Shown here: piece by piece, positions 2,746-21,940 of the stretch
Layout of the letters: every line of letters begins with the position of its first letter
Numbering within the stretch: position 1 is the stretch's first letter
Source of the DNA: Gemmata obscuriglobus
GTDB lineage: Bacteria > Planctomycetota > Planctomycetia > Gemmatales > Gemmataceae
Assembly: GCF_008065095.1 (NCBI RefSeq)
Contig: NZ_CP042911.1
Coordinates: forward strand, 8,640,001 to 8,672,000
Direction: 5' to 3'
DNA length: 32,000 bases
The notes under the pieces: model-generated
What the model saw: the letters and a program-made list of their open reading frames with translations, nothing else
The model's database searches: none
What the model was told of the DNA's origin: nothing
Made by a program: the position numbers and the translations under genes

Positions 2746-3228
2746 GTGGCGAAGCCCGCGAAGAACACGATTTGCCTGTGGTACGACAAAGACGCGGCGG
2801 AGGCGGCCCGGTTCTACGCCGCCACCTTTCCGGACAGTCAAGTGACCGCCGTCCACAAAGCTCCCGGCGACTTCCCGGGCGGCAAGGCGGGCGACGAGCT
2901 GACGGTCGAGTTCACCGTCCTCGGCGTCCCCTGCATCGGCTTGAACGGCGGACCGGTGTTCAAGCACAGCGAGGCGTTCTCCTTCCAGGTGGCCACCGAC
3001 ACCCAGGAGGAGACCGACCGGTACTGGGACGCCATCGTCGGCAATGGCGGGCAGGAGAGCGCGTGCGGGTGGTGCAAGGACAAGTGGGGTCTGTCGTGGC
3101 AGATCACCCCGCGGACGCTGACCGAGGCGCTGGCCAAAGGGGGCGACGAGGCCCGGCGGGCGTTCGCCGCCATGATGACGATGACGAAGATCGATGTCGC
3201 CGCGATCGACGCGGCACGCCGCGGTTGA
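2746..3228 (+). CDS. PhnB/YjdN-like VOC-superfamily protein (3-demethylubiquinone-9 3-methyltransferase-domain fold)
   Basis: VAKPAKNTICLWYDKDAAEAARFY...CGWCKDKWGLSWQITP matches the recalled family pattern (CLWFD..AEEA..FY ... CGWLKDKFGVSWQI). GTG start at 2746 with GGAG 8 nt upstream. The longer ORF from 2647 would begin inside the IS right TIR. Confidence 0.7.
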   Translation: MAKPAKNTICLWYDKDAAEAARFYAATFPDSQVTAVHKAPGDFPGGKAGDELTVEFTVLGVPCIGLNGGPVFKHSEAFSFQVATDTQEETDRYWDAIVGNGGQESACGWCKDKWGLSWQITPRTLTEALAKGGDEARRAFAAMMTMTKIDVAAIDAARRG

Positions 3229-3278
3229 GACGGCGCCGCCGCGAACAATGTCACCAACACAATACAAGGAGCGAGCCG

Positions 3279-3696
3279 ATGAAGTGGAACCCGCACATCG
3301 CCTTCAACAACCAGTGCCGAGAGGCGTTTGAGTTCTACGAGAAGCACCTGGGCGGCAAGATCGTCGCCATGATCGGCTACGGTGATACCCCCGCCAAGGA
3401 TCACATGCCGGCCGACACTGGGGCCAGGATCATTCACGCCCGCCTCGTCCTGGGCGACCAGGTGTTGATGGGCTGCGACGCCCACCCCGCCATGCCGTAT
3501 GACGGGATCAGGGGCTGCGATGTCGCGGTCCAGGTCGAGACGCCCGGAGAGGCGGAACGGCTGTTCGCGGCACTCTCCGAGGGGGGCGGTCCAGATGCCG
3601 CTCGGCGAAACCTTCTGGTCCGTTCGTTTCGGCATGGTCACCGACAAGTTCGGCGTCCCGTGGATGATCAACTGCGAAAAGGCCCCGGGGGCATGA
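3279..3696 (+). pseudogene. PhnB-like VOC family protein interrupted by a frameshift
   Basis: MKWNPHIAFNNQCREAFEFYEKHLGG...AERLFAALSEGG (frame of 3279) continues as VQMPLGETFWSVRFGMVTDKFGVPWMINCEKAPGA only in the frame of ORF 3499-3696. The junction is at the G6 run 3581-3586. AAGGAG lies 8 nt upstream of the ATG. Confidence 0.7.
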
Positions 3697-5121: not shown

Positions 5122-6188
5122 CCGCCGTTGGTCCGATTGAGCTGGAGCGGAGGTATTTCCACTGCCCCACTTGCGGGCAAGGCGAGTTCGGAGCCGATCG
5201 CGGGCTGGGCCTCAGCGGCTACGTCACCCCGGGCGCCTGTCGGATGGCCGTCTTGCTGGGCGTCCAACAGTCCTTCGCCAAAGCCGAAGTGACTCTGGCC
5301 GAGGTGGTCGGCTGGGAATTGGACGACAACACCATCCGGCAACTCTGCCACGCCACGGCGGCCCAGGCCACCGCCACCCGGCAACACCGCTCGACCGCTG
5401 AAGTCTTCACCCGAGCCCAAGCCGCGGCCAGGACCGAGCGGCCGGTGGACAGCGAGTTGCACATCGACGCGGGCAAGGTCAACACTGTGGAGGACGGTTG
5501 GCGGGATCTCAAGATGGCCGTTTTTGCCCGGCGCGAGCGAAGTGCGCCGACCACGGCGATGGACTGGGAGGGACGCGACCTGCCAACCCCGTTGGCGCGG
5601 TCGGTGATCGCGGCCGTGGAGGAGGCGAGCCTGTTCGGGAAGCGGTGTCACGACGAGGCCACGCGACTGGAGTGGACCGATTCGAGCCAAATGACGGTAC
5701 TGGGGGATGGGGCCGAGTGGTTGTGGAACGTGTCCGAGCAGCACTTCCGTGACGCGACCCAGGTCCTCGACTTCTGGCATGGGGCGGAGTACCTCGCCAG
5801 CGGGGCGAAGGCGGTGTTCGGTCCCGGGGTCCAAGCCGCGACGGCGTTTGTCCGGGGCAAGTCGAAGCTGCTGGAAGACGGATATCCCGGGTTGGTGGAC
5901 TGGATCGGAGAACTGACCGGGCAGATGCCCGCCGGAGGCGACGGAGCCGCCTTGGGCGGCGTATTGAATTACTTTTGTGGCCAACAGGGGCGGTTGAATT
6001 ATGCGGTGCGTTTGCGGCGGGGGCAGTCGATTGGAAGCGGGTTGGTGGAGGGAACGGTTAAGCAATTGCTCAACATCAGAATGAAACAAACTGGGGCGAG
6101 ATGGAATCTGGGGCATGTGGCACCGTTTGTCGAACTGGGGGCATTAGCAGCGGGGCCGGAGTGGAAGGGGTTTTGGGAAAACCAATAA
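5118..6188 (+). CDS. ISKra4-like transposase, catalytic ORF
   Basis: YFHCPTCGQGEFGADRGLGLSGY..., IDAGKVNTVEDGWRDLKMA, VLGDGAEWLWN...LDFWHGAEYL, GSGLVEGTVKQLLNIRMKQTGARW. Homologous to the frameshifted copy at 1-1264. The frame is open upstream of 5118 back to about 5031. Confidence 0.7.
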   Translation: MTAVGPIELERRYFHCPTCGQGEFGADRGLGLSGYVTPGACRMAVLLGVQQSFAKAEVTLAEVVGWELDDNTIRQLCHATAAQATATRQHRSTAEVFTRAQAAARTERPVDSELHIDAGKVNTVEDGWRDLKMAVFARRERSAPTTAMDWEGRDLPTPLARSVIAAVEEASLFGKRCHDEATRLEWTDSSQMTVLGDGAEWLWNVSEQHFRDATQVLDFWHGAEYLASGAKAVFGPGVQAATAFVRGKSKLLEDGYPGLVDWIGELTGQMPAGGDGAALGGVLNYFCGQQGRLNYAVRLRRGQSIGSGLVEGTVKQLLNIRMKQTGARWNLGHVAPFVELGALAAGPEWKGFWENQ

Positions 6189-6708: not shown

Positions 6709-8196
6709 CTGTACTTTCCGCGAATCAGCCGTGCTCACGCGGCCAAGTCCAAGCACCGGTAGGCGAGGTCGCGGATTTTCGTGTGGTCGTGGTGCTCGCC
6801 CACAACGGCCCGAATCTCCTCGGCCAACAGCTCGTGTTGCCAGGCCCGGCGCTTGTCCGCGTGACTCGGGCGCCGGCTCGGATCGTCCCACGGGGACGCG
6901 GACCGGTGCCCCACCAACTCGTCCGCGTTCCGAGCCCAGGCCCACACCTCGGTCAGGGTGTGCGCCCATGCACACAGGTGGAAGCACCCGACGTTCGACG
7001 GCACCCCGCGCACCTGTTGCTGGCCCGTCCCGGCGACTTGTTTGAGATCCCGGAAGCACGTCTCCAGGGTGAACCGGTCGGCCACCCGTTCCAAGATGTC
7101 GGTCACCGTCGCGCCCGGGTCGGTGCTGAAGAACGCGACCCATCCGTGGGGCTCGTCCACCAGCACCACCCGGATCGCCCCACCGGCCGGGCGCCAGGTG
7201 GCCACGAACGTCTTGTACCGCTTCTCGACGGTCTTCCCATACACGGTGAACGTGCCGGTGCTCCACCCGCCGTTGTGCCCGGCCCGCTTGGCCAACGAGA
7301 TCCGTGCCGTTCCGTACACCCGCGGGCGCTCGCGCAGCCCGGGCTCCCGCGCGGGCGGTAACGAGCACAGGGCCGCATCCCGGCGGAGCCGGCTCACCAC
7401 CGTCACCCCGAGCTTCCGCAGCGGCTTCAGCACCGGCTTCAGCACCGGCCCCTGGGCGTACGCCCCGTCGGCCACCACCCACACCGCCATGCCCCACATC
7501 TTCAGCCATCCGTGCGCCCACCGCACCAGGTCAACGGCCATCGCCAGCTTGGTGGCGAACCGGGGCCGATCGGTCGCCCGCACCGCGCCCAGGTTCGCCT
7601 TCCGGATGTACAACCGGGCCAACAGGGGCAGAGCCACGACCCCACCCAGTGGATGCGCCACCAGCAACCCGAGCACCACCCACACGTGCCCGTACACGAA
7701 TGCGCTCCCGGCCGGCCCGGGTGTCGGGTTGTGATGCACCCCGGCCCCTTGTACCTTCGGTCCGTACCGGGCGGTCGGTGTGTCGTCCAACGCCAGCACC
7801 ACCCGCGGCCCGGTCACCAGGGGCTTGAGGATCTCGACCAACAACCGGGTCGCGATGCGCTCGACCCGGCGCCCGACCGCGGCCGCGGTGGGGTAACAGC
7901 GGCGGTATTGGGACGATAATCCGGCCGCCCGAATCCAGCAACTCAGGGCGTGCCGCCCGCGGGCCAGCAGCACACCCAGGAACAGGGCCGCCAACCGCCG
8001 ACCCGAGCGCCGATCCAGTGCCCCGGCCAGAACCGAAAACCAGTGGCAACGCGGGGACGGAGTATGCGCAGATGGCATGGCCGTGTCCGTTCGGGGTGGC
8101 TGGTCGTGTGGTAACGCCATCCTCCCGGACGGGCCGGCACTCGTCTACTCCGAACCCACCATCACCTCCCGACCTACAAATTCGCGGAAAGTACAG
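6709..8196 (-). mobile_element. IS701-like insertion sequence, 1488 bp, apparently intact
   Basis: 17-bp perfect TIRs: CTGTACTTTCCGCGAAT at 6709-6725 and its reverse complement at 8180-8196. Flanked by the direct repeat GCCGGT (6703-6708 and 8197-8202). Encodes a 461-aa transposase ORF. Confidence 0.8.
6735..8120 (-). CDS. IS701-like DDE transposase (461 aa)
   Basis: VVLALDDTPTARYGPKVQGAGVHHNP, AVWVVADGAYAQ and RFTLETCFRDLKQ are the pattern I recall for IS701/IS4-superfamily transposases. Lies fully inside the TIRs. Confidence 0.75.
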   Translation of the reverse strand: MALPHDQPPRTDTAMPSAHTPSPRCHWFSVLAGALDRRSGRRLAALFLGVLLARGRHALSCWIRAAGLSSQYRRCYPTAAAVGRRVERIATRLLVEILKPLVTGPRVVLALDDTPTARYGPKVQGAGVHHNPTPGPAGSAFVYGHVWVVLGLLVAHPLGGVVALPLLARLYIRKANLGAVRATDRPRFATKLAMAVDLVRWAHGWLKMWGMAVWVVADGAYAQGPVLKPVLKPLRKLGVTVVSRLRRDAALCSLPPAREPGLRERPRVYGTARISLAKRAGHNGGWSTGTFTVYGKTVEKRYKTFVATWRPAGGAIRVVLVDEPHGWVAFFSTDPGATVTDILERVADRFTLETCFRDLKQVAGTGQQQVRGVPSNVGCFHLCAWAHTLTEVWAWARNADELVGHRSASPWDDPSRRPSHADKRRAWQHELLAEEIRAVVGEHHDHTKIRDLAYRCLDLAA

Positions 8197-8332: not shown

Positions 8333-11305
8333 TTACTTCTGAACTGGCTCTTTGTCCATCGCGCTCATCTCGGCGGTCTCCTTCTTCGACTGCCACCACG
8401 CCCACAGCACCGCCAGCCCCGCCACGCCCGCGACCGCGGCGCCCACGGTCCAGTTCCCGGCCCCGTCCTTCACGTTGTGCATCATCACCAGCGGCAGCGC
8501 GAGCAGGCTCACCATGTTCATCACCTTGATGAGCGGGTTGATCGCCGGGCCGCTCGTGTCCTTCAGCGGGTCGCCGACCGTGTCGCCGGTGACGCTCGCC
8601 TTGTGCTTCTCGCTGCCCTTACCGGTGTTGCGTTCCTTGTCCCTCGGCTCGTCCTCGATCATCTTCTTGGCGTTGTCCCACGATCCGCCCGCGTTCGACA
8701 TGAACACCGCCATGAGCTGGCCGGTGAGGATCATCCCGGCGAGGAACCCGCCGAGCGCGAACGGCCCCAGCAGGAAGCCCACCACGAGCGGCGTGCCGAT
8801 CGCGAGCAGCCCGGGGCCGATCAGCTCGTGTTGAGCGGTCGCCGTGCAGATCGCCACCACGCGCCCGTAGTCCGGCGTCTTCGTGCCCGCCATGATCTCG
8901 GGGTCGCGGAACTGCTTGCGACACTCGAACACGATCAGGTACGCCGCGCGCCCCACCGCGCGAATGGTCATCGCGCTGAACAGGAACGGCACCGCGCCGC
9001 CGATCAGCATCCCGATGAACACCAGCGGTTCGGCGACGGTGAGCTTCGAGGCCCCTTGCGTGAAATCGCCGATCAGGAGCTGGCCGATCTTCTCCTCGGA
9101 GCCGGTCACCAGCACCGCGATGAAGCTGGCGAACAGCGACACCGCCGCAATCACCGCCGAGCCGATCGCCACGCCCTTGGTAATGGCCTTTGTGGTGTTC
9201 CCGACGGCGTCCAGGTCGGCGAGGATCTGCCGCGCGTCCGCGTTCTCGGCGTCCGGCATGAACCCGGGTTCACCGTCTTTCAAGTTCTGGCCGTTCACGT
9301 CACGGTTGAACGACATCTCGCCGATGCCGTTCGCGTTATCGGCGATCGGGCCGAACACGTCCATGCTGATCGTGTCGCCGGTCAGCGTGAGCATCCCGAT
9401 GCCGGTCATCGCGACCCCGAACGCGAGGTACAACAGGTTCTGCGAGTCGCCGCACACCGCAACCGCAGCGAGGATCGCGCCGGAAATAAGGAGCACCGCC
9501 CACACCGAGCTTTCGAGGCCGAGTGCCAGGCCCGAAATGATGTTGGTCGCGTGCCCGGTGCTGCTGGCCCGCACCACCTCCCGCACCGGACTGTACTCGG
9601 TGCTGGTCCAGTACTCGGTACACTTGTTGAGCAGCACCGCGAGCAGGATGCCGATGAGGCAGCACCACGCGACCGCCAGGTTCAGCCCCGGCCGCAGCGG
9701 CACGTGGTACCGGGCTTGCGCCAGTTCGAGCAGCGTCGCGGTCGCACGCAGCTCCCCGTCCTGGGCCACACGACGGGTCCGCAGGTCGGTGACGAGTTGC
9801 AGTTCGTGCTCGCCCCCGGCCGCGGCCACCTTGACCCGGCGCTGCGCGAGCTGGTCGCGCGCCTCGGGGGCGAGCTTGCGCCACACCGCCAGCGCGTCGG
9901 TCCGGTGCCGGTCCACCTCCGCTTCCAGCGCGACCGTTTTCGGGGCGCTCCGCTCGGCCCCGCTCCGCAGGTCGCGCAGCTCCTTCACCTCGGACGCCAC
10001 GGTCCGCGGGCCGGCGTGCGTGAGCCCCAGTTCGGCGCGCAGGTCGGTGTTGTCGAACAGCTCCTGGTACATCCCGCGGTCGATGCCCCGCTCCACGATG
10101 TAGGCCGCGTCGAACCGCAGATAGATGAGGCCGAACAGCATGAACCCGAGGGTGCTGATGACCGCACTGCGCCAGAACCCGCGGTTGATCGCCCCCATCG
10201 CGGTCGAGCTGCTGCCCGTCGTCATGCCGGCACCGACCAGCGACGTGCTGATGACGCTGGCGACCACGCCCACCGCCTGCACGAGCAGCGGGAAGATCAT
10301 CCCCTTGAACCCGAACGCCGCGTACCCGAGCATCACCGCCGCCACCATCGTGACCGAGTAGCTCTCGAACACGTCGGCCGCCATCCCGGCGCAGTCGCCG
10401 ACGTTGTCGCCGACGTTGTCGGCGATGGTCGCGGCGTTCCGCGGGTCGTCCTCGGCGATGGACTGCTCCACCTTCCCGACGAGGTCCGCGCCGACGTCGG
10501 CGGCCTTGGTGTAAATCCCACCGCCCACGCGCATGAACAGCGCCAGAAGGGACCCGCCGAACCCGTAGCCGATCAGGATCTCGTAAGCCAGTTCGCCGAA
10601 CACGAGCAAGATGAGCGTGCCGCCGAGCAGCCCCAGCCCGCAGGTGAACATGCCCGTGATGGTGCCGGTCTTGTACGCCAGCCGCATGGCGGCGCCGAAG
10701 TTCGCCCTCGTGTCGCCGGCCTCGCGCCGCGCGCGGGCGGCGGCGGCGACGCGCAGGTTGCCCGCCGTGGCGAGCCGCATCCCGGTGAAGCCCACCGCGG
10801 CCGAGAAGAGAGCGCCCATCAGGAACGCCACCCCGCGCCCGACCGCGATCGTCTTCAGCTCGTCGATCGAGTGCATCCCGGGCTCGGCCTCCCACGGCCA
10901 CTTCGACGCGATGATGACGCCCGTCAGCAGCACGATCAGCACGCCGACCACCGCGAACTGGCGTCGAAGGTAGGCGTTCGCCCCCTCGCGCACCGCCTGC
11001 GCGACCTTCTGCATCGCCGGCGTGCCGGTGTCGGCCGCGTACACCTCCTTCATCAGCCGGGCGGCGTACACGAGCCCGCCGACCGCGACCGCGAGGCACC
11101 CGAGCAGGCCGAGCTTCTCACCGAACCCGTAAGCGCCCGACGTAAGAAACGCGAACGGCTCCCAGGCGGAGCCGAACACGGTCCAATCGGCAGTCGGGCG
11201 GCCCGAGAAGTCGCCCGCCCCGAGCAACCCGATCGGGAGGGCGCAAACGACGAGCAGCAGCCACGGGAACCGCGGCCGGCGGGCGCGAGAGCGAGAGAGG
11301 GACAT
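8333..11305 (-). CDS. hppA: Membrane-bound H+-translocating pyrophosphatase, K+-independent type, 990 aa
   Basis: Family motifs GGGIYTKAADVGADLVGKVE, DNVGDNVGDCAGMAADVFESY, TEYWTSTEYSPVREV, GHATNIISGLALGLES, DAVGNTTKAITKGVAIGSA, SNAGGSWDNAKK, GDTVGDPLKDTSGPAINPLIKV. The Lys in GNTTKA (codon 9188-9190) is the known marker of K+-independent enzymes. Confidence 0.92.
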   Translation of the reverse strand: MSLSRSRARRPRFPWLLLVVCALPIGLLGAGDFSGRPTADWTVFGSAWEPFAFLTSGAYGFGEKLGLLGCLAVAVGGLVYAARLMKEVYAADTGTPAMQKVAQAVREGANAYLRRQFAVVGVLIVLLTGVIIASKWPWEAEPGMHSIDELKTIAVGRGVAFLMGALFSAAVGFTGMRLATAGNLRVAAAARARREAGDTRANFGAAMRLAYKTGTITGMFTCGLGLLGGTLILLVFGELAYEILIGYGFGGSLLALFMRVGGGIYTKAADVGADLVGKVEQSIAEDDPRNAATIADNVGDNVGDCAGMAADVFESYSVTMVAAVMLGYAAFGFKGMIFPLLVQAVGVVASVISTSLVGAGMTTGSSSTAMGAINRGFWRSAVISTLGFMLFGLIYLRFDAAYIVERGIDRGMYQELFDNTDLRAELGLTHAGPRTVASEVKELRDLRSGAERSAPKTVALEAEVDRHRTDALAVWRKLAPEARDQLAQRRVKVAAAGGEHELQLVTDLRTRRVAQDGELRATATLLELAQARYHVPLRPGLNLAVAWCCLIGILLAVLLNKCTEYWTSTEYSPVREVVRASSTGHATNIISGLALGLESSVWAVLLISGAILAAVAVCGDSQNLLYLAFGVAMTGIGMLTLTGDTISMDVFGPIADNANGIGEMSFNRDVNGQNLKDGEPGFMPDAENADARQILADLDAVGNTTKAITKGVAIGSAVIAAVSLFASFIAVLVTGSEEKIGQLLIGDFTQGASKLTVAEPLVFIGMLIGGAVPFLFSAMTIRAVGRAAYLIVFECRKQFRDPEIMAGTKTPDYGRVVAICTATAQHELIGPGLLAIGTPLVVGFLLGPFALGGFLAGMILTGQLMAVFMSNAGGSWDNAKKMIEDEPRDKERNTGKGSEKHKASVTGDTVGDPLKDTSGPAINPLIKVMNMVSLLALPLVMMHNVKDGAGNWTVGAAVAGVAGLAVLWAWWQSKKETAEMSAMDKEPVQK

Positions 11306-13450: not shown

Positions 13451-14923
13451 TGTAGTTTCCGCGAAGTTATAGGTCTCAAGCGGCGAGATCCAGGCACCGG
13501 CGCGCGAGGGCGCATATTCTCGCGGGATCCTGTTGGTCCCCCACAACGGCCTGAATCTCCTCGGCCAGCAACTGGTGCTGCCAGGCTCGGCGCTTGTCCG
13601 CGTGACTCGGGCGCCGGTTCGGGTCATCCCACGGAGAGGCGGACCGATGCCCGACCAGTTCTTCGGCCTTCCGGTCCCAGGCCCATACCTCGGTCATGGT
13701 GAACGACCACAGGCACAGATGAAAGGATCCGATATCGGCCGGCAACCGGCGCACCTGTTGGCGGCCCGCACCGGCGGTCGGCTTGAGGTCCCGGAAGCAC
13801 GTCTCCAGGGCGAACCGGTCGGCCACCCGTTCCAGGACATGGGCCGCGGTTGGGCCGTGTCGGTGCCGAAGAACGCGCCCCACCCGTGGGGTTCGTTCAC
13901 CAGCACCACCCGGGTCGCACACCCGGCCGGGCGCCACGTGGCCACGAACGTCTTGTACCGCTTCTGCACGGTCTTCCCGTACACGGTAAATGTGCCGGTG
14001 CTCTACCCGCCGTGGTGGGCGGCCCGCTTGACCAGTGCCCCCCGGTCCGTGCCACACACCCGTGGGTGCCCGGGCTCGCGGGCCAGGCACCGAGCACAGG
14101 GCCGCGTTCCGCCGCAACCGGCTCACCACCGTCACCCCGAGTTGCCGCAGGGGCTTGAGCACCGGCCCCTGGGTGTCCGCCCCGTCGGCCGCCACCCACA
14201 CCGCCTTGCCCCACAACCGGAGCCACCCATGGCGCCACCGCACCAAGCCCACGACCATCGTCCGCTTGGTCGCAAACGGCGGCCAGTCGGCCGCGCGGGC
14301 CGCCCCCAGGTTCTTTTTCCGGATGTACAGCCGGGCCAACAGGGGGAGCGCCACGCCCCCGCCCAGCGGGTGCGACACCAATAACCCGAGGACCACCCAC
14401 ACGTGCCGTACGCGAACGCACTCCCGCCCTCTCGTGTCGGGTTGTGATGCACCACGGCCCCTTGCACCTTCGGGCCGTACCGCTCCGTCGGGGTGTCGTC
14501 CAACGCCAGCACCACCCGCGGCCCCGTTGCCACCACGGGCTTGAGCACCTTGAGCAACAGCCGCGTGGCGATGCGGTCGGCGCGGCGCCCGACGGCCGCG
14601 ACCGTGGCGTAGCACCGGCGGTACTGGGTGGAGCGCCCGGCGGCCCGAATCCTGTTGCTGAGGGCGCGGCGCCCGCGGGTCCGGATCAGGCCCAAGAACA
14701 GGACCACCAGCCGGCACCCGGACCGCGGGTCCAACGCCCCCCGCGAGCACCGAAAACCACTGGTATCGAGGGACCGGGGTATGCGACGATAACGTGGCCG
14801 CATCCGTTCGGAGTACGTTGGTGGTGGGTAACGCCATCGTCCCGGGCGGACCGGCACTCGTCTACTACCAATCCCGGGGCTCACGCCAACACGCCAACGG
14901 CCTATAAATTCGCGGAAAGTGCA
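13451..14923 (-). pseudogene. Decayed IS701-like element (second, diverged copy)
   Basis: Degenerate TIRs: TGTAGTTTCCGCGAAG at 13451-13466 and ATTCGCGGAAAGTGCAG at 14908-14923. Homology to the 6735-8120 transposase jumps between three minus-strand frames (ORFs 13476-14837, 14132-14965, 13694-13984), at least four frame changes. No TSD. Confidence 0.7.
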
Positions 14924-15031
14924 GCTTTGCTGAAGAAGGAAAGCAACTGGGGGTGGTTCAGCCACAAGATTTACGAAGTGGATAACGTCGCGGTGCTCAC
15001 CGAGTTGATGCGCACCTGGCGCGAGTGGGCC

Positions 15032-16153
15032 TCACCCGCCTGACCGTAGGCAAATTTGCGCGAGCGCCCACGCGGCGGCTTCGCGGATCGTTTCTTCGGA
15101 ATCGGTGAGCGCCTGCTCCAGCGCCGGAACGGCCCGCGAGTCGCCGATGTTACCTAAAACGATGGCGGCGTTCCGCAGGAGACCGGGCCGGCGGTTGCGA
15201 AACAGGGACGTTTTCTTGAAGCGCTTGCGAAAGGCGTCGGCGTCGAGCCCAAGGAGTTCAATCGGGTCGAGCCAGGCCAGTTCCGGGTCGTGCGGGAACG
15301 CAACGGTCCGCTCGCCCGCGTTCCGGTTCCAGGGGCACACGTCCTGGCACACGTCGCAGCCGTACAGCCAGTGCCCCATCGGCTCGCGGAGTTCGACCGG
15401 AATTTCCGACCGCAGCTCGACGGTCAAATAGCTGATGCACTTGCGCGCGTCGAGGACGTAGGGCTCGGTGAACGCGCCGGTCGGGCACGCCTCAAGGCAC
15501 CGGGTACAGGTTCCGCAGTGCGAAGAGGTAGCAGGCGGGTCGGGTGCCAGTTCGAGGGTCGTGAGAATCGCGCCGAGGAAGAAGAAGCTCCCGCGGCGGG
15601 TGTTAATGAGCATCGTGTTCTTGCCGACCCACCCCAACCCAGCGCGCCGGGCGAAGTCGCGTTCGAGAAGGGGGGCGGTGTCGGCGACCGCTTCGGTGCG
15701 CGATCCGGGCACCTGCTCTTCGAGCCACGCCGCGAGGGCGTTGAGCCGGTCCCAGATGTAACGGTGATAGTCCGGTCCGGCGGCGTAGGCGGCGACCCTT
15801 CCGAAATGCGGAGTGCGGAATTCGGAATGCGGAACAGCAGAAGGGGAATTCGTGCTGCTCGTTTCGCCTTTCTCTTGGGTTTCGTTTTCACTCCGAATTC
15901 CGAATTCCGCACTCCGCACTCCACTATATTCGAGACCCACCATCAACACGCTGCGCACGTCGTCCAGCACGCTCCGCGGGTGCTGTCGCTCCGCCCGCAA
16001 CTTGGGCAGGTAGCTCATTTCGCCGGCGAACCCGCGGTCGAGCCACACCGCGAACCGCCCGAAGCCGTCGGCGTCGGTCGCGGGGGCGATGCCCGACAGT
16101 GCGAACCCCAGCCGCGCGGCCTCGGCCTTCAGACGCTCTTCGATGTCACCCAT
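15032..16153 (-). CDS. queG: Epoxyqueuosine reductase
   Basis: MGDIEERLKAEAARLGF..., GPDYHRY, LGWVGKNTMLIN, GSFFFLG, CGTCTRCLEACPTGA, DARKCISYLTVEL, YGCDVCQDVCPWNR, then HEAT-like C-terminus LRNAAIVLGN. Start trimmed to ATG 16153. The longer ORF crosses the 16220-16291 hairpin. Confidence 0.88.
   Translation of the reverse strand: MGDIEERLKAEAARLGFALSGIAPATDADGFGRFAVWLDRGFAGEMSYLPKLRAERQHPRSVLDDVRSVLMVGLEYSGVRSAEFGIRSENETQEKGETSSTNSPSAVPHSEFRTPHFGRVAAYAAGPDYHRYIWDRLNALAAWLEEQVPGSRTEAVADTAPLLERDFARRAGLGWVGKNTMLINTRRGSFFFLGAILTTLELAPDPPATSSHCGTCTRCLEACPTGAFTEPYVLDARKCISYLTVELRSEIPVELREPMGHWLYGCDVCQDVCPWNRNAGERTVAFPHDPELAWLDPIELLGLDADAFRKRFKKTSLFRNRRPGLLRNAAIVLGNIGDSRAVPALEQALTDSEETIREAAAWALAQICLRSGG
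15807..15918. repeat. Heptamer-armed hairpin element inside the queG reading frame
   Basis: TGCGGAGTGCGGAATTCGGAAT at 15807-15828 is the perfect reverse complement of 15897-15918 (22-bp stem, 68-nt loop). The arms are tandem 7-mers (AATGCGG AGTGCGG AATTCGG AATGCGG). Confidence 0.9.
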
Positions 16154-16219
16154 AAGAACTGGTAGCGGAAGGGGCGAATGACCGTGGCTTCGTTTCAGCC
16201 CTCGTGTTCGCGAAGACAG

Positions 16220-16291
16220 ATTTTGACAGGATCGACAGGATTTCAAATTGATCTATCTTCATCCTGTTTATCCTGTCGATCCTGTCAAAAT
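16220..16291. repeat. Hairpin element with 9-nt tandem units between the ADP-ribosylglycohydrolase gene and queG
   Basis: ATTTTGACAGGATCGACAGGAT at 16220-16241 is the perfect reverse complement of 16270-16291 (22-bp stem, 28-nt AT-rich loop). The unit ATCCTGTNN repeats three times on the right side. Confidence 0.85.
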
Positions 16292-16341
16292 CTTCTGGGC
16301 CTTTCCATCTGAGCGACAGCTACCGGCCCCGTCCGGGCGAA

Positions 16342-17268
16342 TCACTCCAGCCCCATTTGGTGCAGTTCGGCGGCCCGCTGCTCGATCAGGTCGCGCATCG
16401 CCAGCTTCGCACGCCACTCCGCCGGGATGCCGTCGGCGCCGTAGTATGCGCCCGCGATCTGCCCGTACACGGCGCCCGTTGTGTCCGCGTCCTCGCCGAG
16501 GTTCACCACCTTCAGCGCGCCGTCGCGGAAGGTGTCGGTGCCGTGGAACGCCCACAGCGCCGCCTCGAGTGTATGAATCACGTACCCGCTGCCGCGGATC
16601 TGCGGCGGCTCCTTCACCGCGAACGACCCGCCGGCGATCTGCGCGACCTTGCCCGTCAGCGGGCTGCGGAGGAAGTGCGCCAGCGCCGGCTCGTGGTTGT
16701 TGTTCAGGATCTGTGCCTTCGGCATCCCGCTGACGGCCGCGAGCAGCAGGCCCGCGAAGTAGCGGCACGCCTCGACGCACTCGGCAGCAGCGTGTGTGGT
16801 GCGCGAACTCTCTCCGGCGAGGTGAATCGCCTTCTCGGCATCGCGGGCGAACGCCAGCGGCACCGGCGCCAGCCGCATCAGCGACCCGTTCCCAGCCGCG
16901 TTCGGGCTGGGATCGCCACAAAACGGGTGCGGGTTACGCTTGAACAGCGCCAGCGCGCCGCGAGTCGCGTTCCCGATGTCGAAGCACCGCCCCTTGACGC
17001 TCAGGTGCCCGTCGAGCCACCACCGGCAGTACGTTTCGAGCTGGTGAACCGGGTCGAAATCCTGCCGCGTGACGAGGCTTTCTGCCAAGCACAGGGCCAT
17101 TGAGGTGTCGTCGGTCCACTCGCCCGGTTTCAGGTTGAATGGGCCGCCGCCGACCATGTCGGTTAGCGGCTCGAACGAGCCGGGCTGCTCGAACTCCAGA
17201 GTGGTGCCGAGCGCGTCACCGGCGGCCAGCCCGAGCAGGCAGCCGCGGTAGCGGTCGAGAGTTGTCAT
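16342..17268 (-). CDS. ADP-ribosylglycohydrolase family protein
   Basis: RYRGCLLGLAAGDALGTTLEF, GEWTDDTSMALCLAESL and GEDADTTGAVYGQIAGAYYG are the classic family motifs. Confidence 0.85.
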   Translation of the reverse strand: MTTLDRYRGCLLGLAAGDALGTTLEFEQPGSFEPLTDMVGGGPFNLKPGEWTDDTSMALCLAESLVTRQDFDPVHQLETYCRWWLDGHLSVKGRCFDIGNATRGALALFKRNPHPFCGDPSPNAAGNGSLMRLAPVPLAFARDAEKAIHLAGESSRTTHAAAECVEACRYFAGLLLAAVSGMPKAQILNNNHEPALAHFLRSPLTGKVAQIAGGSFAVKEPPQIRGSGYVIHTLEAALWAFHGTDTFRDGALKVVNLGEDADTTGAVYGQIAGAYYGADGIPAEWRAKLAMRDLIEQRAAELHQMGLE

Positions 17269-17329
17269 TGGGCGTTCTCTCGTCAGAGGAGATCGATGCG
17301 CGTCGGCCGCACGGGGCAGCAGACGTGCA

Positions 17330-18472
17330 TCAGTTTAACGGAACGAGCTTCCGCCCCGTGGCCCATTTCTTCTCGGCGGGCGCCTGGCGCACCACCTCGT
17401 TGTACAGCGTGTCGCGCTCGACCGGCACGCGGCCCGCCTCCTCGATCAGCCGCCGCAACTCGCGGACCGTCAGCTCCTGCGGCGAATCGCTCCCGGCGGC
17501 GTGGTAAATCGTCTCGTGGACCACCGTACCGTCGATGTCGTCCGCCCCGTAGCTCTGCGCCACCTGCGCCACCTTCACCGTCAGCATCTGCCAGTACGCC
17601 TTGATATGCGGGAAGTTGTCCAGCATCAGCCGCGCCAGCGCCATCACCTTCAGGTCCATCAGCCCGCTGGGCTTCGGGATGTCCTTGCCGAGCGGGTTGT
17701 TCGTCGGGTGGAAGGCCAGCGGGATGAACGTCTGGAAGCCGCCCGTCACGTCCTGAAGCTCGCGCAGCCGGAGCATGTGGTCGAGGCGGTGCTCCGCGGT
17801 CTCGATGTGCCCGTAGAGCATCGTGGCGTTCGACTTCCCGCCCAGCTCGTGCCACTCGCGGTGGACCCGCAGCCACTGGTCCGCGTCGGCCTTATAGTCG
17901 CAGAGCTTCGAGCGCACCTCGGGGTGGAAGATCTCCGCCCCGCCGCCGGGGAGCGAGCCGAGGCCCGCCTCCTTCATCTCCGCGAGCAGCTCCTTCGTGG
18001 GGCGCTTCGTGATGCGCTCGAACCAGTCCCACTCCACCGCCGTCCACGCCTTCAGGTGCAGGTCCGGGAACTCGCGGTGGATGCTGCGGATGATGTTGAG
18101 GTACCACTCGTACGGCAGCAGGTGGTGCAGCCCGCCGACGATGTGCAACTCGGTAGCCCCCTGGGCGCTCGCCTCGCGGGCGCGCTGGAGGATCTGCTCG
18201 TCGGTCATCACGAAGCCGGACGGCGACTTCAGGTCGGCCCGGAACGAGCAGAACGCGCACCGGTAGACGCACACGTTGGTCGGGTTCAGGTGCTGGTTCA
18301 CGTTGTAATACGTGACGTTGCCGTTCTTCTTCTCGCGGACGAAGTTGGCCAGTTCGCCGAGGGTGAACGGGTCCGCGTTCCGGTCGAGGAACAGTCCGTC
18401 GTCGAACGTGAGTCGCGTGCCCGAATGGACCTTGTCGCGAATGTCGGCGAGCCGGGCTGCGGTCGTGGTCAT
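17330..18472 (-). CDS. mqnE: Radical SAM futalosine-pathway enzyme, aminofutalosine synthase-like (MqnE; MqnC not excluded)
   Basis: Start trimmed to MTTTAARLADIRDKV (ATG 18472, GGAG upstream). NPTNVCVYRCAFCSF radical-SAM cluster motif, GATELHIVGG, NATMLYGHIE, YGADDIDGTVVHETIYHAAG. Confidence 0.65.
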   Translation of the reverse strand: MTTTAARLADIRDKVHSGTRLTFDDGLFLDRNADPFTLGELANFVREKKNGNVTYYNVNQHLNPTNVCVYRCAFCSFRADLKSPSGFVMTDEQILQRAREASAQGATELHIVGGLHHLLPYEWYLNIIRSIHREFPDLHLKAWTAVEWDWFERITKRPTKELLAEMKEAGLGSLPGGGAEIFHPEVRSKLCDYKADADQWLRVHREWHELGGKSNATMLYGHIETAEHRLDHMLRLRELQDVTGGFQTFIPLAFHPTNNPLGKDIPKPSGLMDLKVMALARLMLDNFPHIKAYWQMLTVKVAQVAQSYGADDIDGTVVHETIYHAAGSDSPQELTVRELRRLIEEAGRVPVERDTLYNEVVRQAPAEKKWATGRKLVPLN

Positions 18473-18481
18473 GTGCGCTCC

Positions 18482-18574
18482 GAGTTCCGGGTTCCACGTT
18501 CCGGGCGTCACAAGTCGAGACCCGGGCGGGGCCGGCGCCCGGTCGGAACCTGGAACCCAGAGCCTGGAACGCTC
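18482..18574. repeat. Imperfect heptamer-armed hairpin in the mqnE leader
   Basis: Left arm GAGTTCCGGGTTCCACGTTCCGGG (18482-18505). Right arm GGAACCTGGAACCCAGAGCCTGGAACGCTC (18545-18574). The units GTTCCNN and NNGGAAC are complementary. A nested GC hairpin GACCCGGGCG...CGCCCGGTC lies at 18519-18544. Confidence 0.6.
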
Positions 18575-18730
18575 CACGATGTTTTATCGCTCCCCGCGCT
18601 AACCGCAATCGGCGCCGGAGGGTTAACCCGTATCTCCGGCACGCGATAAGCCCGGAACTCTGGGCGAACTGATTGAACCCGCCGGGTTATGGCGCAGAAT
18701 CGGGTTGGTGCGCGCATTTCAACGCGAACA

Positions 18731-18848
18731 CAGTAGTTCCAAGTTCCAGGTTCCAGGTTCCAAGTTGGTAACGGCTCGGCAAAAGCCCGGGCAATTCGTG
18801 TGCCTCAGCTTTCACGTGGAACTTGGAACCTGGAACTTGGAACGACTG
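18731..18848. mobile_element. 118-bp MITE-like element related to the 1447-2703 IS
   Basis: Left arm CAGTAGTTCCAAGTTCCAGGTTCCAGGTTCCAAGTTGG (18731-18768). Right arm CACGTGGAACTTGGAACCTGGAACTTGGAACGACTG (18813-18848) is its imperfect reverse complement. The termini match the IS TIRs. Flanks are GAACA / AAACA. Confidence 0.6.
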
Positions 18849-18871
18849 AAACAGGCATCACGGAGGCTCTC

Positions 18872-19513
18872 ATGCGCAAGTTGCTACTGGCGGCGGTGCT
18901 CGCGGGCGGTGGGCTGGTGGGTGCGGCGGGCACTGCGGACGCGCAGTACCGCCACCACCGGCCCCACCAGCCGGTGGTCAGCTCGGTGACGTGGCCGTCG
19001 GCGAACCCGCCGGGCTGGTACACCAGCACGTACAAGCACCAGTGGTTCTACCCGTGGTACGCGTACTACGACTTCAGCTACGGCCCGTACGCAAACTGGG
19101 CCGCGAGCGGCGGGTACGCCGGGTACTCGTACCACGGCCCGGCCGGGTACTACAACTACCCGCTCAGCGGGCACACGAGCGGCGACGCCGCGCCGGCCGC
19201 GCCGAGCACACCGGCCGAACAGAAGGACGCGCCGAAGGCCGACCCCGGGACGGCAGCGGCGGAGGTGGCGGTGACCCTGCCGGCCGACGCGAAGCTGCTG
19301 TTCAACGGCGCCCCGGCGGCCGGGACCGGCGCGGTCCGGACGTTCCGCACGCCGGAACTCCAGAAGGGCGTAAGCTACCGGTACGAACTCACCGCGGAGG
19401 TGGCCCGCGACGGGCGCACCGAGCGCGTCACTGAGACGGTGGTGGTGCGGGCGGGTGAAACCGCACAGGTGACCCTCGCGCCGACCGGCATCGCGACCGC
19501 CGGCGCGAAGTGA
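18872..19513 (+). CDS. Secreted TIGR03000-domain (Planctomycete-type) protein
   Basis: Signal peptide MRKLLLAAVLAGGGLVGAAGTADA, a Tyr/Trp/Gly-rich middle, and C-terminal VTLPADAKLLFNGAPAAGTGAVRTFRTPELQKGVSYRYELTAEVARDGRTERVTETVVVRAGE matching the recalled TIGR03000 pattern. GGAGG lies 6 nt upstream of the ATG. Confidence 0.75.
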   Translation: MRKLLLAAVLAGGGLVGAAGTADAQYRHHRPHQPVVSSVTWPSANPPGWYTSTYKHQWFYPWYAYYDFSYGPYANWAASGGYAGYSYHGPAGYYNYPLSGHTSGDAAPAAPSTPAEQKDAPKADPGTAAAEVAVTLPADAKLLFNGAPAAGTGAVRTFRTPELQKGVSYRYELTAEVARDGRTERVTETVVVRAGETAQVTLAPTGIATAGAK

Positions 19514-20851: not shown

Positions 20852-21940
20852 ATGCCAGCCACGCACCCCACCCGCCGCGACTTCTTCCGCACCACCGCCG
20901 CCGGAGCCGTCGGGTTGACCCTCGCAGCGAGCGCCTCGGGGGGCTCACGCCCCCCGCTCGCCATCGGAAAAGCGAAGTCGTGCATCTTCATCAACATGGT
21001 GGGCGGACCGGCGCACCTCGACACCTTCGACCCCAAGCCGAACGCGCCTTCTGATGTGCGCGGGCCGTTCAGCCCGATTCAAACGAAGGTGCCGGGTCTG
21101 CACCTGAGCGAACTGTTCCCGAAGCTTGCCGCGGTCAGCGATAAGTTCGCGCTGGTGCGGTCGATGCACCACGACGCCCCGCCGGTCCACGAGAGCGGGT
21201 TCCAGTTGCTGAACACCGGCCGGCTGTTCCGCGACGGCCCCGAGTGGCCGAGCGCCGGCGCGGTGGTTTCGCGCCTGACGCACCGCTCGTCCACTGTGAT
21301 TGCCGACGCCGCCCAGATCGACACCGGAATCGCCGTCTCTCACGGGCAGGGGCGAGGATGGATCGAAAACGCCTGGGCGCCCGACGTCGATATTTTCGAA
21401 TGGCCGTCGAGTCTCGGCGAGAAGTTGAACTACGCCACGAAGTTGATCGAAATCGGCTGGCTGTTCGCGACGGTCAACATGTACTCCACCGTCTTTGATG
21501 CCCCTTCCTGGGACTGCCACGCGGACGGCGGATCACTCCGCACCACGCTCGCGGACGTGCGCAACATCGTTGCCCCGAGCTTCGACACCGCCGTTGCGCA
21601 ACTCCTCACCGACCTCGAAGAGCGCGGCCTGCTCGAATCGACACTCGTAGTGGCGACAGGTGAATTCGGGCGCACCCCGAAGCTCAACTCGAACGGCGGG
21701 CGCGACCACTGGGCCGGGTGCTGGACCGCGCTCGTCGCCGGCGGCGGGGTGAAAGGCGGTCAGGTGATCGGCGCCTCCGACGCCACCGGCTGCGAACCCG
21801 CGGAGCGGCCCGTCACGCCGCAAGAACTCGTCAGCACCGTCTTCCATGCGCTCGGCGTTCCTCACAACGCCACGATCCCCGGGCCGGACGGCACATCGGT
21901 GAACGTGTACCCGGGCACGCCGGTCGCGGAACTGTTCTGA
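20852..21940 (+). CDS. DUF1501 domain protein with Tat signal
   Basis: Start trimmed to MPATHPTRRDFFRTTAAGAVGLTL (twin-arginine motif). CIFINMVGGPAHLDTFDPKP and GEFGRTPKLNSNGGRDHWAGCW...GGGVKGGQVIGASD are DUF1501 hallmarks. Confidence 0.8.
   Translation: MPATHPTRRDFFRTTAAGAVGLTLAASASGGSRPPLAIGKAKSCIFINMVGGPAHLDTFDPKPNAPSDVRGPFSPIQTKVPGLHLSELFPKLAAVSDKFALVRSMHHDAPPVHESGFQLLNTGRLFRDGPEWPSAGAVVSRLTHRSSTVIADAAQIDTGIAVSHGQGRGWIENAWAPDVDIFEWPSSLGEKLNYATKLIEIGWLFATVNMYSTVFDAPSWDCHADGGSLRTTLADVRNIVAPSFDTAVAQLLTDLEERGLLESTLVVATGEFGRTPKLNSNGGRDHWAGCWTALVAGGGVKGGQVIGASDATGCEPAERPVTPQELVSTVFHALGVPHNATIPGPDGTSVNVYPGTPVAELF

Follow-up and report, generated by a model that had tools for sequence, protein, structure and literature searches.

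A palindrome of convergent heptamer repeats carried in frame within queG of Gemmata obscuriglobus

RESULTS

The queG locus and its hairpin

The queG gene of Gemmata obscuriglobus lies on the reverse strand of a 32,000-nucleotide (nt) stretch of DNA (contig NZ_CP042911.1, positions 8,640,001 to 8,672,000; termed the window, whose own numbering is used throughout) and carries within its coding sequence a palindrome built of tandem heptamers (Table 1). The open reading frame (ORF) matches the Pfam families Fer4_16, QueG_DUF1730, and HEAT (HEAT_2) and the epoxyqueuosine reductases of Protein Data Bank entries 5d08 and 5d6s, and its product is 97% identical to a protein of Gemmata sp. JC673 that NCBI names tRNA epoxyqueuosine(34) reductase QueG. 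The corresponding locus of JC673 (L121), whose flanks are 94 to 98% identical to the window, was used for comparison. The DUF1730 match is stretched, with 104 residues over a 77-position profile. Downstream of the palindrome the Fe-S cysteine motifs and the HEAT domain are present, and all Pfam domains are kept in an uninterrupted ORF. A first-pass annotation, made from the sequence without database searches, had described an in-frame, stop-free hairpin segment here; the ORF is indeed continuous, and positions 15800 to 15925 are exactly the codons of loop residues 77 to 118. The continuous ORF also ruled out a frameshift or bypass signal. An assembly artifact was ruled out because the window and JC673, which were assembled independently, both have the element and because many metagenomes contain homologous inserts.

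Table 1. Features of the queG region of the window, and repeats found in the QueG loop at metagenome loci
Feature	Position or locus	Strand	Description
queG coding sequence	15032..16153	-	373 aa from the likely true start, ATG at 16153; mechanical ORF reaches TTG at 16246
Variable, insert-bearing DUF1730 loop	15800..15925	-	Codons of residues 77-118 (SGVRSAEFGIRSENETQEKGETSSTNSPSAVPHSEFRTPHFG); from 120-homolog alignment
3' arm in mRNA	15802..15836	-	Forward strand: CGAAATG CGGAGTG CGGAATT CGGAATG CGGAACA; exact 22-nt core 15807-15828
Hairpin loop	15837..15888	-	Purine-rich on mRNA strand, low GC, with small internal stem (from sequence, fold, and GC profile)
5' arm in mRNA	15889..15923	-	Forward strand: CACTCCG AATTCCG AATTCCG CACTCCG CACTCCA
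Second hairpin	16218..16293		Perfect 24-bp arms of GACAGGAT/CGACAGGAT units, 28-nt loop; intergenic between the ADP-ribosylglycohydrolase gene and queG, upstream of queG
Third hairpin	18731..18849		119 nt; arms of 4-5 GTTCCAR heptamers, 35 nt, 91% complementary; intergenic
QueG-loop heptamer-arm hairpin	L122		Unit GGATTGC
QueG-loop heptamer-arm hairpin	L123		Unit ACGCGGA; 46-bp stem, perfect except for two G.U pairs; ~-100 kcal/mol
QueG-loop heptamer-arm hairpin	L124		Unit GGGATTC
QueG-loop heptamer-arm hairpin	L131		Unit GTCCGTN
QueG-loop heptamer-arm hairpin	L139		Units GGGGTCA and GGGGCGA
QueG-loop array	L134		Ten-unit CAGGART array without partner array
QueG-loop nonperiodic GC-rich palindromes	L125, L144, L149, L183 (family 1); L136, L156 (family 2); L154 (family 3)		

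The 22-mer TGCGGAGTGCGGAATTCGGAAT occurs exactly on the forward strand at 15807 to 15828 and on the reverse strand at 15897 to 15918, against an expectation of 0.00 matches from 100 dinucleotide-preserving shuffles of the window. The inverted repeat grows to 27 nt at 96% complementarity (15807 to 15833 and 15892 to 15918, with a 58-nt spacer), and the whole palindrome spans 121 nt, with five tandem heptamers in either arm and a hairpin loop of 52 to 58 nt. The arm unit CGGARTK (15802 to 15836), which reads GCGGARY in the mRNA sense, faces its complement at 15889 to 15923. Tandem Repeats Finder reported period-7 arrays of 4.3 copies of AATGCGG (15805 to 15834) and 4.9 copies of CACTCCG (15889 to 15922), so the perfect 22-bp stem of heptamer arms noticed in the first-pass annotation was recovered both as an exact match and as tandem arrays. 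Its suggestion of a very stable mRNA stem likewise agreed with the computed fold: the mRNA-sense sequence from 15790 to 15935 folded at -66.5 kcal/mol, compared with -41.8 +/- 4.1 kcal/mol for shuffled sequences (z = -6.0; 0 of 200 shuffles matched it).

The GC content of the element is 0.47 to 0.48, in surroundings of ~0.65 to 0.75. Five of its six frames are open, compared with two of six for the two intergenic hairpins of Table 1 and a mean of 1.1 for shuffled sequences. A tandem heptamer yields the identical seven codons in all three frames, and the CGGARTK unit contains no stop codon on either strand. The traits of a terminator or attenuator were not found at the hairpin: after the 3' arm the mRNA reads ...CAUUUCGGAAGGGUCGCC with no U-run, and 255 further codons follow. 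An Rfam 15 scan of positions 15000 to 19500, covering the three hairpins, returned no family at gathering score; the best results were two chance-level matches to hairpin-shaped models (21 to 23 bits against gathering scores of 73 to 80, E = 0.2 to 0.6).

Synteny with JC673 ends at position 15054, 22 nt short of the queG stop codon. Beyond the 3' end of queG, the window contains DDE-transposase fragments (14132 to 14965, a weak PF13546 match overlapping the ORF at 13476 to 14837), in place of the type II secretion genes of JC673. A rearrangement associated with an insertion sequence (IS) appears to have replaced the final ~7 queG codons (window 13476 to 15054).

An insertion in a short loop of QueG

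Loop length was taken as the stretch separating two conserved motifs, ...EY/NY and RVAxYA, in a metagenome set of 80 planctomycete queG loci. It was 13 aa in 29 of the 80 loci, no longer than 16 aa in 50, and at least 25 aa in 18. Among the 120 closest homologs, which are mostly from Gemmataceae, it ranged from 4 to 99 aa (at least 25 aa in 91 and at most 16 aa in 17). In a profile search, the QueG proteins of B. subtilis (5d08) and S. thermophilus (5d6s) were gapped opposite the insert and thus have a short loop. Judged from these alignments, the queG segment has been inserted into a variable DUF1730 loop that is otherwise short; it is missing from the solved QueG structures and from most planctomycete orthologs. 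The first-pass annotation had drawn its comparison with E. coli QueG, said to have only a short variable loop here; in the present analysis the B. subtilis and S. thermophilus proteins took its place.

In an AlphaFold2 model built with 44 homologs, of moderate quality overall, residues 78 to 126 had a predicted local distance difference test (pLDDT) score below 50 and no secondary structure, the modeled neighbors of the insert being a strand at residues 68 to 75 and a helix from residue 122. The predicted structure would thus leave the insert unstructured, and the insert-bearing loop is probably dispensable and disordered.

One explanation for an insert of this kind could be that it is kept for the sake of the protein, as a selected disordered polar loop of QueG (serving, for example, partner binding or solubility) for which the hairpin is a mere vehicle. 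Consistent with such a role, the insert is in frame and stop-free, its peptide is polar (rich in Ser, Glu, and Thr), and expanded loops are common in the clade; a precedent comes from Borg elements, in which tandem repeats are reported to create new disordered regions (PMC9879509). However, the loop peptides of the closest homologs, 4 to 99 aa long, conserve neither sequence nor length, the arm peptides merely follow from translation of the heptamers, and insert-free orthologs occur in the family. We regard selection on the peptide as extremely improbable.

Ancestry of the insert and evolution of its arms

We compared the DNA of 11 orthologous inserts (the window, L121 to L123, L128, and L430 to L435). 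All 11 have the unit GCGGARY in one codon frame (RNAECG... / ...PHSAFR), and in all 11 the 5' arm ends with GGAAYNGAAAAC-like sequence, which starts the hairpin loop; TCTTCC precedes the 3' arm in most. The hairpin loops vary in sequence and in length (~20 to 58 nt), the arms have three to five units with lineage-specific variants, and QueG identity across the clade with GCGGARY inserts is now only ~65 to 75%. The common unit, codon frame, and loop start argue for one old insertion that has been retained, and the compared sequences point to a single event in an ancestor of a Gemmata clade.

The arms resemble their own partners more than those of other lineages. Complementarity was 0.81 between arms of one lineage and 0.73 between arms of different lineages, and the same arm matched between lineages at 0.72 (Mann-Whitney p ~7e-4, from nonindependent pairs and automatically delimited arms). 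This within- versus between-lineage comparison replaced fixed-column covariation, which was dropped since the register in which the arms pair is shifted between lineages by whole heptamers (in the 11-sequence alignment, the column numbers of a pair add up to 151 in the window and 144 in L430). Such a shift indicates gain and loss of units. Over the 11 inserts, stems were 86% Watson-Crick (333 of 385 positions). There were 19 G.U and 10 A.C mismatches, a ratio that is uninformative since the stem-finding score favored G.U and that falls short of a convincing excess of G.U on the mRNA strand. In L430, a G.A mismatch recurs in every unit. The copy in the window is colinear with that of JC673, and 4 positions of the 121-nt element differ between them, compared with 43 of 1188 nt gene-wide. 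Three of these four differences convert a single heptamer from AGTGCGG to AATTTGG (window 15909 to 15912) and leave the other arm unchanged, which weakens the stem.

These data bear on the idea that a cis-acting RNA hairpin of 27 to 31 bp has been selected in the queG mRNA, where it would set expression or stability by slowing ribosomes or as a substrate of RNase III. Stems of 27 to 31 bp are within the RNase III size range. The computed fold is highly stable (-66.5 kcal/mol, z = -6), a homologous hairpin is kept in 11 orthologs with arms that covary within lineages, and the loop is expanded in most of the closest homologs; the long retention and the concerted arms in particular lend the idea some plausibility. 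Against it, 17 of the 120 closest homologs and most planctomycete orthologs have no insert, other lineages have hairpins of unrelated families in this loop, and the same architecture is found between genes, in unrelated enzymes, and on phage contigs (see below). Moreover, the three-base change in one JC673 heptamer is uncompensated, L430 tolerates periodic G.A mismatches, G.U shows no clear asymmetry over A.C, and no Rfam family matches. We consider a selected RNA hairpin quite unlikely. The built-in translational or RNA-stability control offered as an option by the first-pass annotation found no specific support, given the insert-free Gemmataceae, the other hairpins in the loop, the uncompensated JC673 change, and the G.A mismatches.

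Other hairpins in the QueG loop and near queG

At 11 metagenome loci, a QueG loop of at least 66 nt folded at -0.55 kcal/mol per nt or lower, in every case in frame. The loop holds heptamer-arm hairpins of several units, an unpaired heptamer array, and nonperiodic palindromes of three families (Table 1). Because these unrelated in-frame hairpin families share one loop of QueG, the loop must have been colonized more than once.

Turnover is also seen in the two intergenic hairpins near queG. In JC673 (L121 ~5850 to 6095), the arms of the GACAGGAT hairpin enclose, within the loop, an extra palindrome of ~250 nt. The third hairpin is missing from JC673, where a BLAST comparison with L121 revealed the empty site CGCGAACAGG between 98%-identical flanks. 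In the window it is flanked by a direct duplication of AACA (18727 to 18730 and 18850 to 18853) that resembles a target-site duplication; a slippage deletion would leave the same pattern and could equally account for it.

These observations raise the possibility that the loop is a hot spot for active elements resembling miniature inverted-repeat transposable elements, or MITEs, and that the window copy is a recent independent insertion or nested replacement. At least four unrelated hairpin families occur in the loop, and several of their perfect 34- to 50-bp stems look young. The hairpin at 18731 to 18849 is present or absent between nearly identical flanks, with its 4-bp duplication; both JC673 and a phage contig have hairpins whose loops hold nested palindromes, and two hairpin copies on one phage contig (L225) have similar loops. 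For the queG copy, however, the GCGGARY group shares its codon frame, loop start, and 3' TCTTCC across the 11 orthologs, which implies one origin, and the window and JC673 copies are colinear and have diverged no faster or slower than queG as a whole. Further, there is no conserved body outside the arms, no transposase is linked to the element, and a slippage deletion could account for the 4-bp repeat just as well. A recent insertion at a hot spot is in our judgment very unlikely. Of the mobile or repeat insertion first proposed, the repeat character stands; the queG copy is old and common to a Gemmata clade, and it is the neighbor at 18731 to 18849 that is absent from JC673.

Several further repeats were noted around these hairpins. 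JC673 carries a 167-nt nested palindrome (L121 4626 to 4792, corresponding to window ~17318 to 17321), with inner arms of AAAGNNN heptamers, in the interval that separates the MqnE-like radical SAM gene from the ADP-ribosylglycohydrolase gene; the window has none. The left outer arm of this palindrome is the reverse complement of flanking sequence that is also in the window, and the 246 nt that hold it (L121 4595 to 4840) fold at -162 kcal/mol. Positions 18473 to 18669 of the window, which coincide with the likely start of the MqnE-like gene or lie immediately upstream of it, comprise degenerate period-7 arrays (3.9 copies of TCCGGGT at 18479 to 18505 and 3.7 copies of GGAACCT at 18545 to 18570) and a 19-nt inverted repeat (18473 to 18491 and 18651 to 18669); these repeats may be what is left of an older hairpin of the GTTCC type. 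Between conserved flanks, 227 nt of the window (21259 to 21485) and 317 nt of JC673 (L121 504 to 820) are unrelated in sequence.

The ORF of an H+-pyrophosphatase (8333 to 11305, reverse strand) encodes 990 aa, matched in two stretches to a 645-position Pfam profile, and contains a 27-nt inverted repeat (10396 to 10422 and 10476 to 10502) whose left arm lies in an array of 2.7 copies of the 12-mer GTCGCCGACGTT (10394 to 10425). This could be another in-frame insert or reflect an overlong ORF call. A DDE_5/DDE_Tnp_1 transposase gene of 461 aa lies at 6735 to 8120 on the reverse strand. The DDE transposase ORFs of the window (6735 to 8120 and 14132 to 14965) showed no relation to the queG arms.

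Distribution of the heptamer arrays

Species-representative genomes and viral contigs were searched for three tandem copies of ARTKCGG. At least 120 genome loci and at least 119 loci on viral contigs were found; the genome matches listed came from Acidobacteriota, Verrucomicrobiota, Planctomycetota, Clostridia, Cyanobacteria, Chloroflexota, Gemmatimonadota, Nitrospirota, Bacteroidales, and one Thermoplasmatota archaeon. Among the matches listed, about a quarter had a complementary array within 300 nt, and the paired arrays folded into stems at -36 to -205 kcal/mol, with loops that are unrelated and in some cases hold nested palindromes. By comparison, 42 and 46 viral loci were obtained for two control heptamers that permute the unit without altering its composition, no oppositely oriented pairs being among the matches listed, and three copies of GTTCCAR occurred at 24 loci, 3 of which had close inverted pairs. 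Gemmataceae and Gemmata metagenome-assembled genomes (MAGs) have ARTKCGG arrays elsewhere (L038, L082, and L108), and there are several copies each in other genomes and on phage contigs, such as the three on IMGVR_UViG_3300037424_002232.

After the arms were masked, a BLAST comparison of the flanks of 279 arrays revealed no conserved element body; the similarity clusters that did appear joined either orthologous sites of related phages or both arms of a single hairpin. The arrays are therefore not a classical MITE family or a family of the Rickettsia palindromic element (RPE) kind. Copy-and-paste mobility was ruled out by the same absence of a conserved body.

In-frame ARTKCGG arrays are not confined to queG. 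Pfam-confirmed cases include a class-III aminotransferase with a complete hairpin (Pedosphaera), two histidine kinases (within or beside HATPase_c), PurL, HflX, and a P-type ATPase.

A 351-aa phage protein (...WDAKNRYGLPEEIPMEYAQIAQIFSNSEFGMRNSELRGPA...) has an in-frame ARTKCGG array at the same position on at least 12 IMG/VR contigs (L207, L217, L224, L227, L251, L254, L279, L290, L306, L313, L314, and L320), and a second viral cluster comprises 11 arrays over 11 loci, of which L207, L224, L251, L279, and L320 also belong to the first. In the Chloroflexota MAG NAM bin18, ARTKCGG arrays on two contigs (L034 ~3147 to 3530 and L089 ~2306 to 2400) adjoin arrays of four to five CGCTCCC copies, so arrays of differing units cluster. 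On the viral contig L277 (3874 to 4216), outer arms of five GGAATGC heptamers surround a second long palindrome, nested as in JC673; a 383-nt stretch of this contig folds at -205 kcal/mol.

Comparison with known repeats

A close likeness is to the GGGAATC heptamer arrays of Xanthomonas (Rehm et al. 2015, PMC4692102). Each genome has 70 to 75 convergent pairs capable of forming stem-loops; 7 to 11% of the repeats are intragenic, and repeat length varies among closely related species. Nostoc has related GGGGAYT arrays, about a third of them inside genes (PMC4692102), and heptanucleotide simple sequence repeats are the most abundant long class of such repeats in prokaryotes, an abundance attributed to polymerase slippage (PMC4679880, PMC4692102). 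Like the queG element, the Xanthomonas arrays consist of tandem 7-nt units, usually ~4 copies, with close opposite-strand arrays capable of folding into stem-loops or cruciforms; most of the dispersed Xanthomonas arrays are intergenic, and their unit number and sequence vary between close relatives, as among the queG inserts. The queG element itself has five head-to-tail 7-nt units in each arm, an opposite-strand stem-loop pair, and variation between relatives (one whole heptamer changed in JC673, three to five units among orthologs). It differs in its unit (GCGGARY/CGGARTK) and phylum, in the position of the whole inverted pair in frame within an enzyme, in its retention across a clade with arms that evolve in concert, and in the occurrence of its unit across many phyla and viral contigs. 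Translated copies were outside the analysis of Rehm et al., and because the queG unit is not rich in G tracts, the G-quadruplex rationale of those arrays does not extend to it.

Palindromic repeats that lie in frame within genes are described for RPEs and for a few other cases (PMC3184786). As read from the sequence, the queG element corresponds to these in being a palindrome (121 nt, against ~100 to 150 bp) inside an uninterrupted ORF, predicted to add an extra peptide at a site that the fold would tolerate. In the work of Ogata in 2000, RPE peptides reportedly lie at surface-loop positions. RPEs form multicopy families in which a full-length consensus is conserved, and they are not known outside Rickettsia, whereas the heptamer hairpins share only their arms, with unrelated loops and no full-length consensus after arm masking; the queG arms, unlike those of RPEs, are internally repetitive.

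Repetitive extragenic palindromic (REP) sequences are dispersed hairpin repeats moved by RAYT transposases, and a REPIN is an inverted doublet of these forming a long hairpin with a variable loop (PMC3116915, PMC3733652). Both are short and form hairpins, like the queG element, and both are dispersed repeats abundant in intergenic DNA. A REP is one imperfect palindrome of 20 to 40 nt, whereas the queG copy has arms of tandem heptamers and a coding location, and the GTAG/CGTC tag of REP sequences was not found at its arm ends (CGAAATGCGG... / ...CCGCACTCCA). No RAYT/Y1 transposase was found among the 10 window ORFs scanned against Pfam, a scan that was not exhaustive. The queG arms could count as the terminal inverted repeats of a MITE, but the copies have no homogeneous body or interior derived from a parent IS. 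Insert-free queG loci are too distant in sequence for a target-site duplication to be read at the queG copy.

In cyanobacteria, the heptameric short tandemly repeated repetitive sequences of Mazel (1990) and the small dispersed repeats of Elhai (2008) are said to be intergenic tandem arrays that pair into stem-loops; very small repeats of this type reportedly insert into each other and into hairpins, with units other than that of queG, and are said to be cyanobacterial only. We found ARTKCGG arrays in several cyanobacterial genomes (L006, L046, L078, L097, L103, and L105). A literature search found no paper with the exact ARTKCGG array and nothing relevant on palindromic repeats of Gemmata.

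Convergent heptamer arrays (in Xanthomonas) and in-frame palindromes (the RPEs) have thus already been reported, and the queG hairpin is not a new kind of system; it belongs to a widespread kind of hairpin repeat that invades tolerant protein loops, to which it adds an instructive case.

DISCUSSION

The explanation that we favor, and consider probable, is that the queG element is a tolerated palindrome of heptamer arrays that entered or grew in a disordered loop of QueG and whose arms have been kept alike by slippage and template switching at the DNA level. A palindrome of two convergent arrays would have been inserted into, or have grown within, the DUF1730 loop in an ancestor of a Gemmata clade and then been carried in frame down that clade. 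It would be tolerated because the loop is dispensable and probably disordered, because the heptamer unit is stop-free in every frame of either strand, and because the net length is a multiple of three. Replication slippage would add and remove units, and the arms would be homogenized as one is copied onto the other through intrastrand template switching (quasipalindrome correction). The likeness of the arms is thus likely to stem from DNA-level homogenization rather than from selection for a queG-specific RNA structure; we infer that the insert lacks a function and that its peptide is translated and harmless. The wider class of heptamer-array hairpins is mostly intergenic, turns over fast between close relatives, acquires nested insertions in its loops, and recurs in permissive protein loops. 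Absence of the segment from solved structures and most planctomycetes, the unstructured model, and the arrays in other genomes and enzymes all support the tolerated repeat insertion in a loop envisaged by the first-pass annotation.

Several points weigh against this explanation. The heptamer element is present as a single copy in the 32-kb window. Expanded loops are the rule in the closest homologs (91 of 120 with at least 25 aa), a high occupancy for a neutral passenger. The arms have held ~86% Watson-Crick pairing over ~30% protein divergence, which would also follow from selection for the hairpin, and the test for concerted arms used nonindependent pairs and automatic delimitation. The mean pLDDT of the QueG model is 66. 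Finally, quasipalindrome template switching enters the argument as a mechanism of general knowledge.

A more far-reaching reading is that CGGARTK palindromes are an uncatalogued class of prokaryotic and phage DNA elements whose arms are actively kept complementary, through copying that is either dedicated or linked to replication, and that renew themselves preferentially at hairpins already present, so that some protein loops, among them the DUF1730 loop of QueG, would be long-lived nurseries, and that the Gemmataceae queG hairpin is in addition selected as an RNA or DNA structure that tunes expression. We think this combination unlikely.

With a tolerated, old heptamer-array palindrome as the preferred explanation, the queG insert offers a clean, datable in-frame palindromic repeat in a conserved enzyme outside Rickettsia, and a single loop of QueG appears as a site repeatedly colonized by differing hairpin families across Planctomycetota. 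Because the arms are complementary yet diverge between lineages, they provide a natural system in which quasipalindrome homogenization can be set against selection for structure. For annotation, the case urges caution, since predicted peptides such as RNAECGMRNAE or IPHSAFRIPHS are derived from repeats. The occurrence of the arrays across phyla, in an archaeon, in phages, and in unrelated enzymes suggests a general route by which slippage-prone repeats create disordered segments of proteins.

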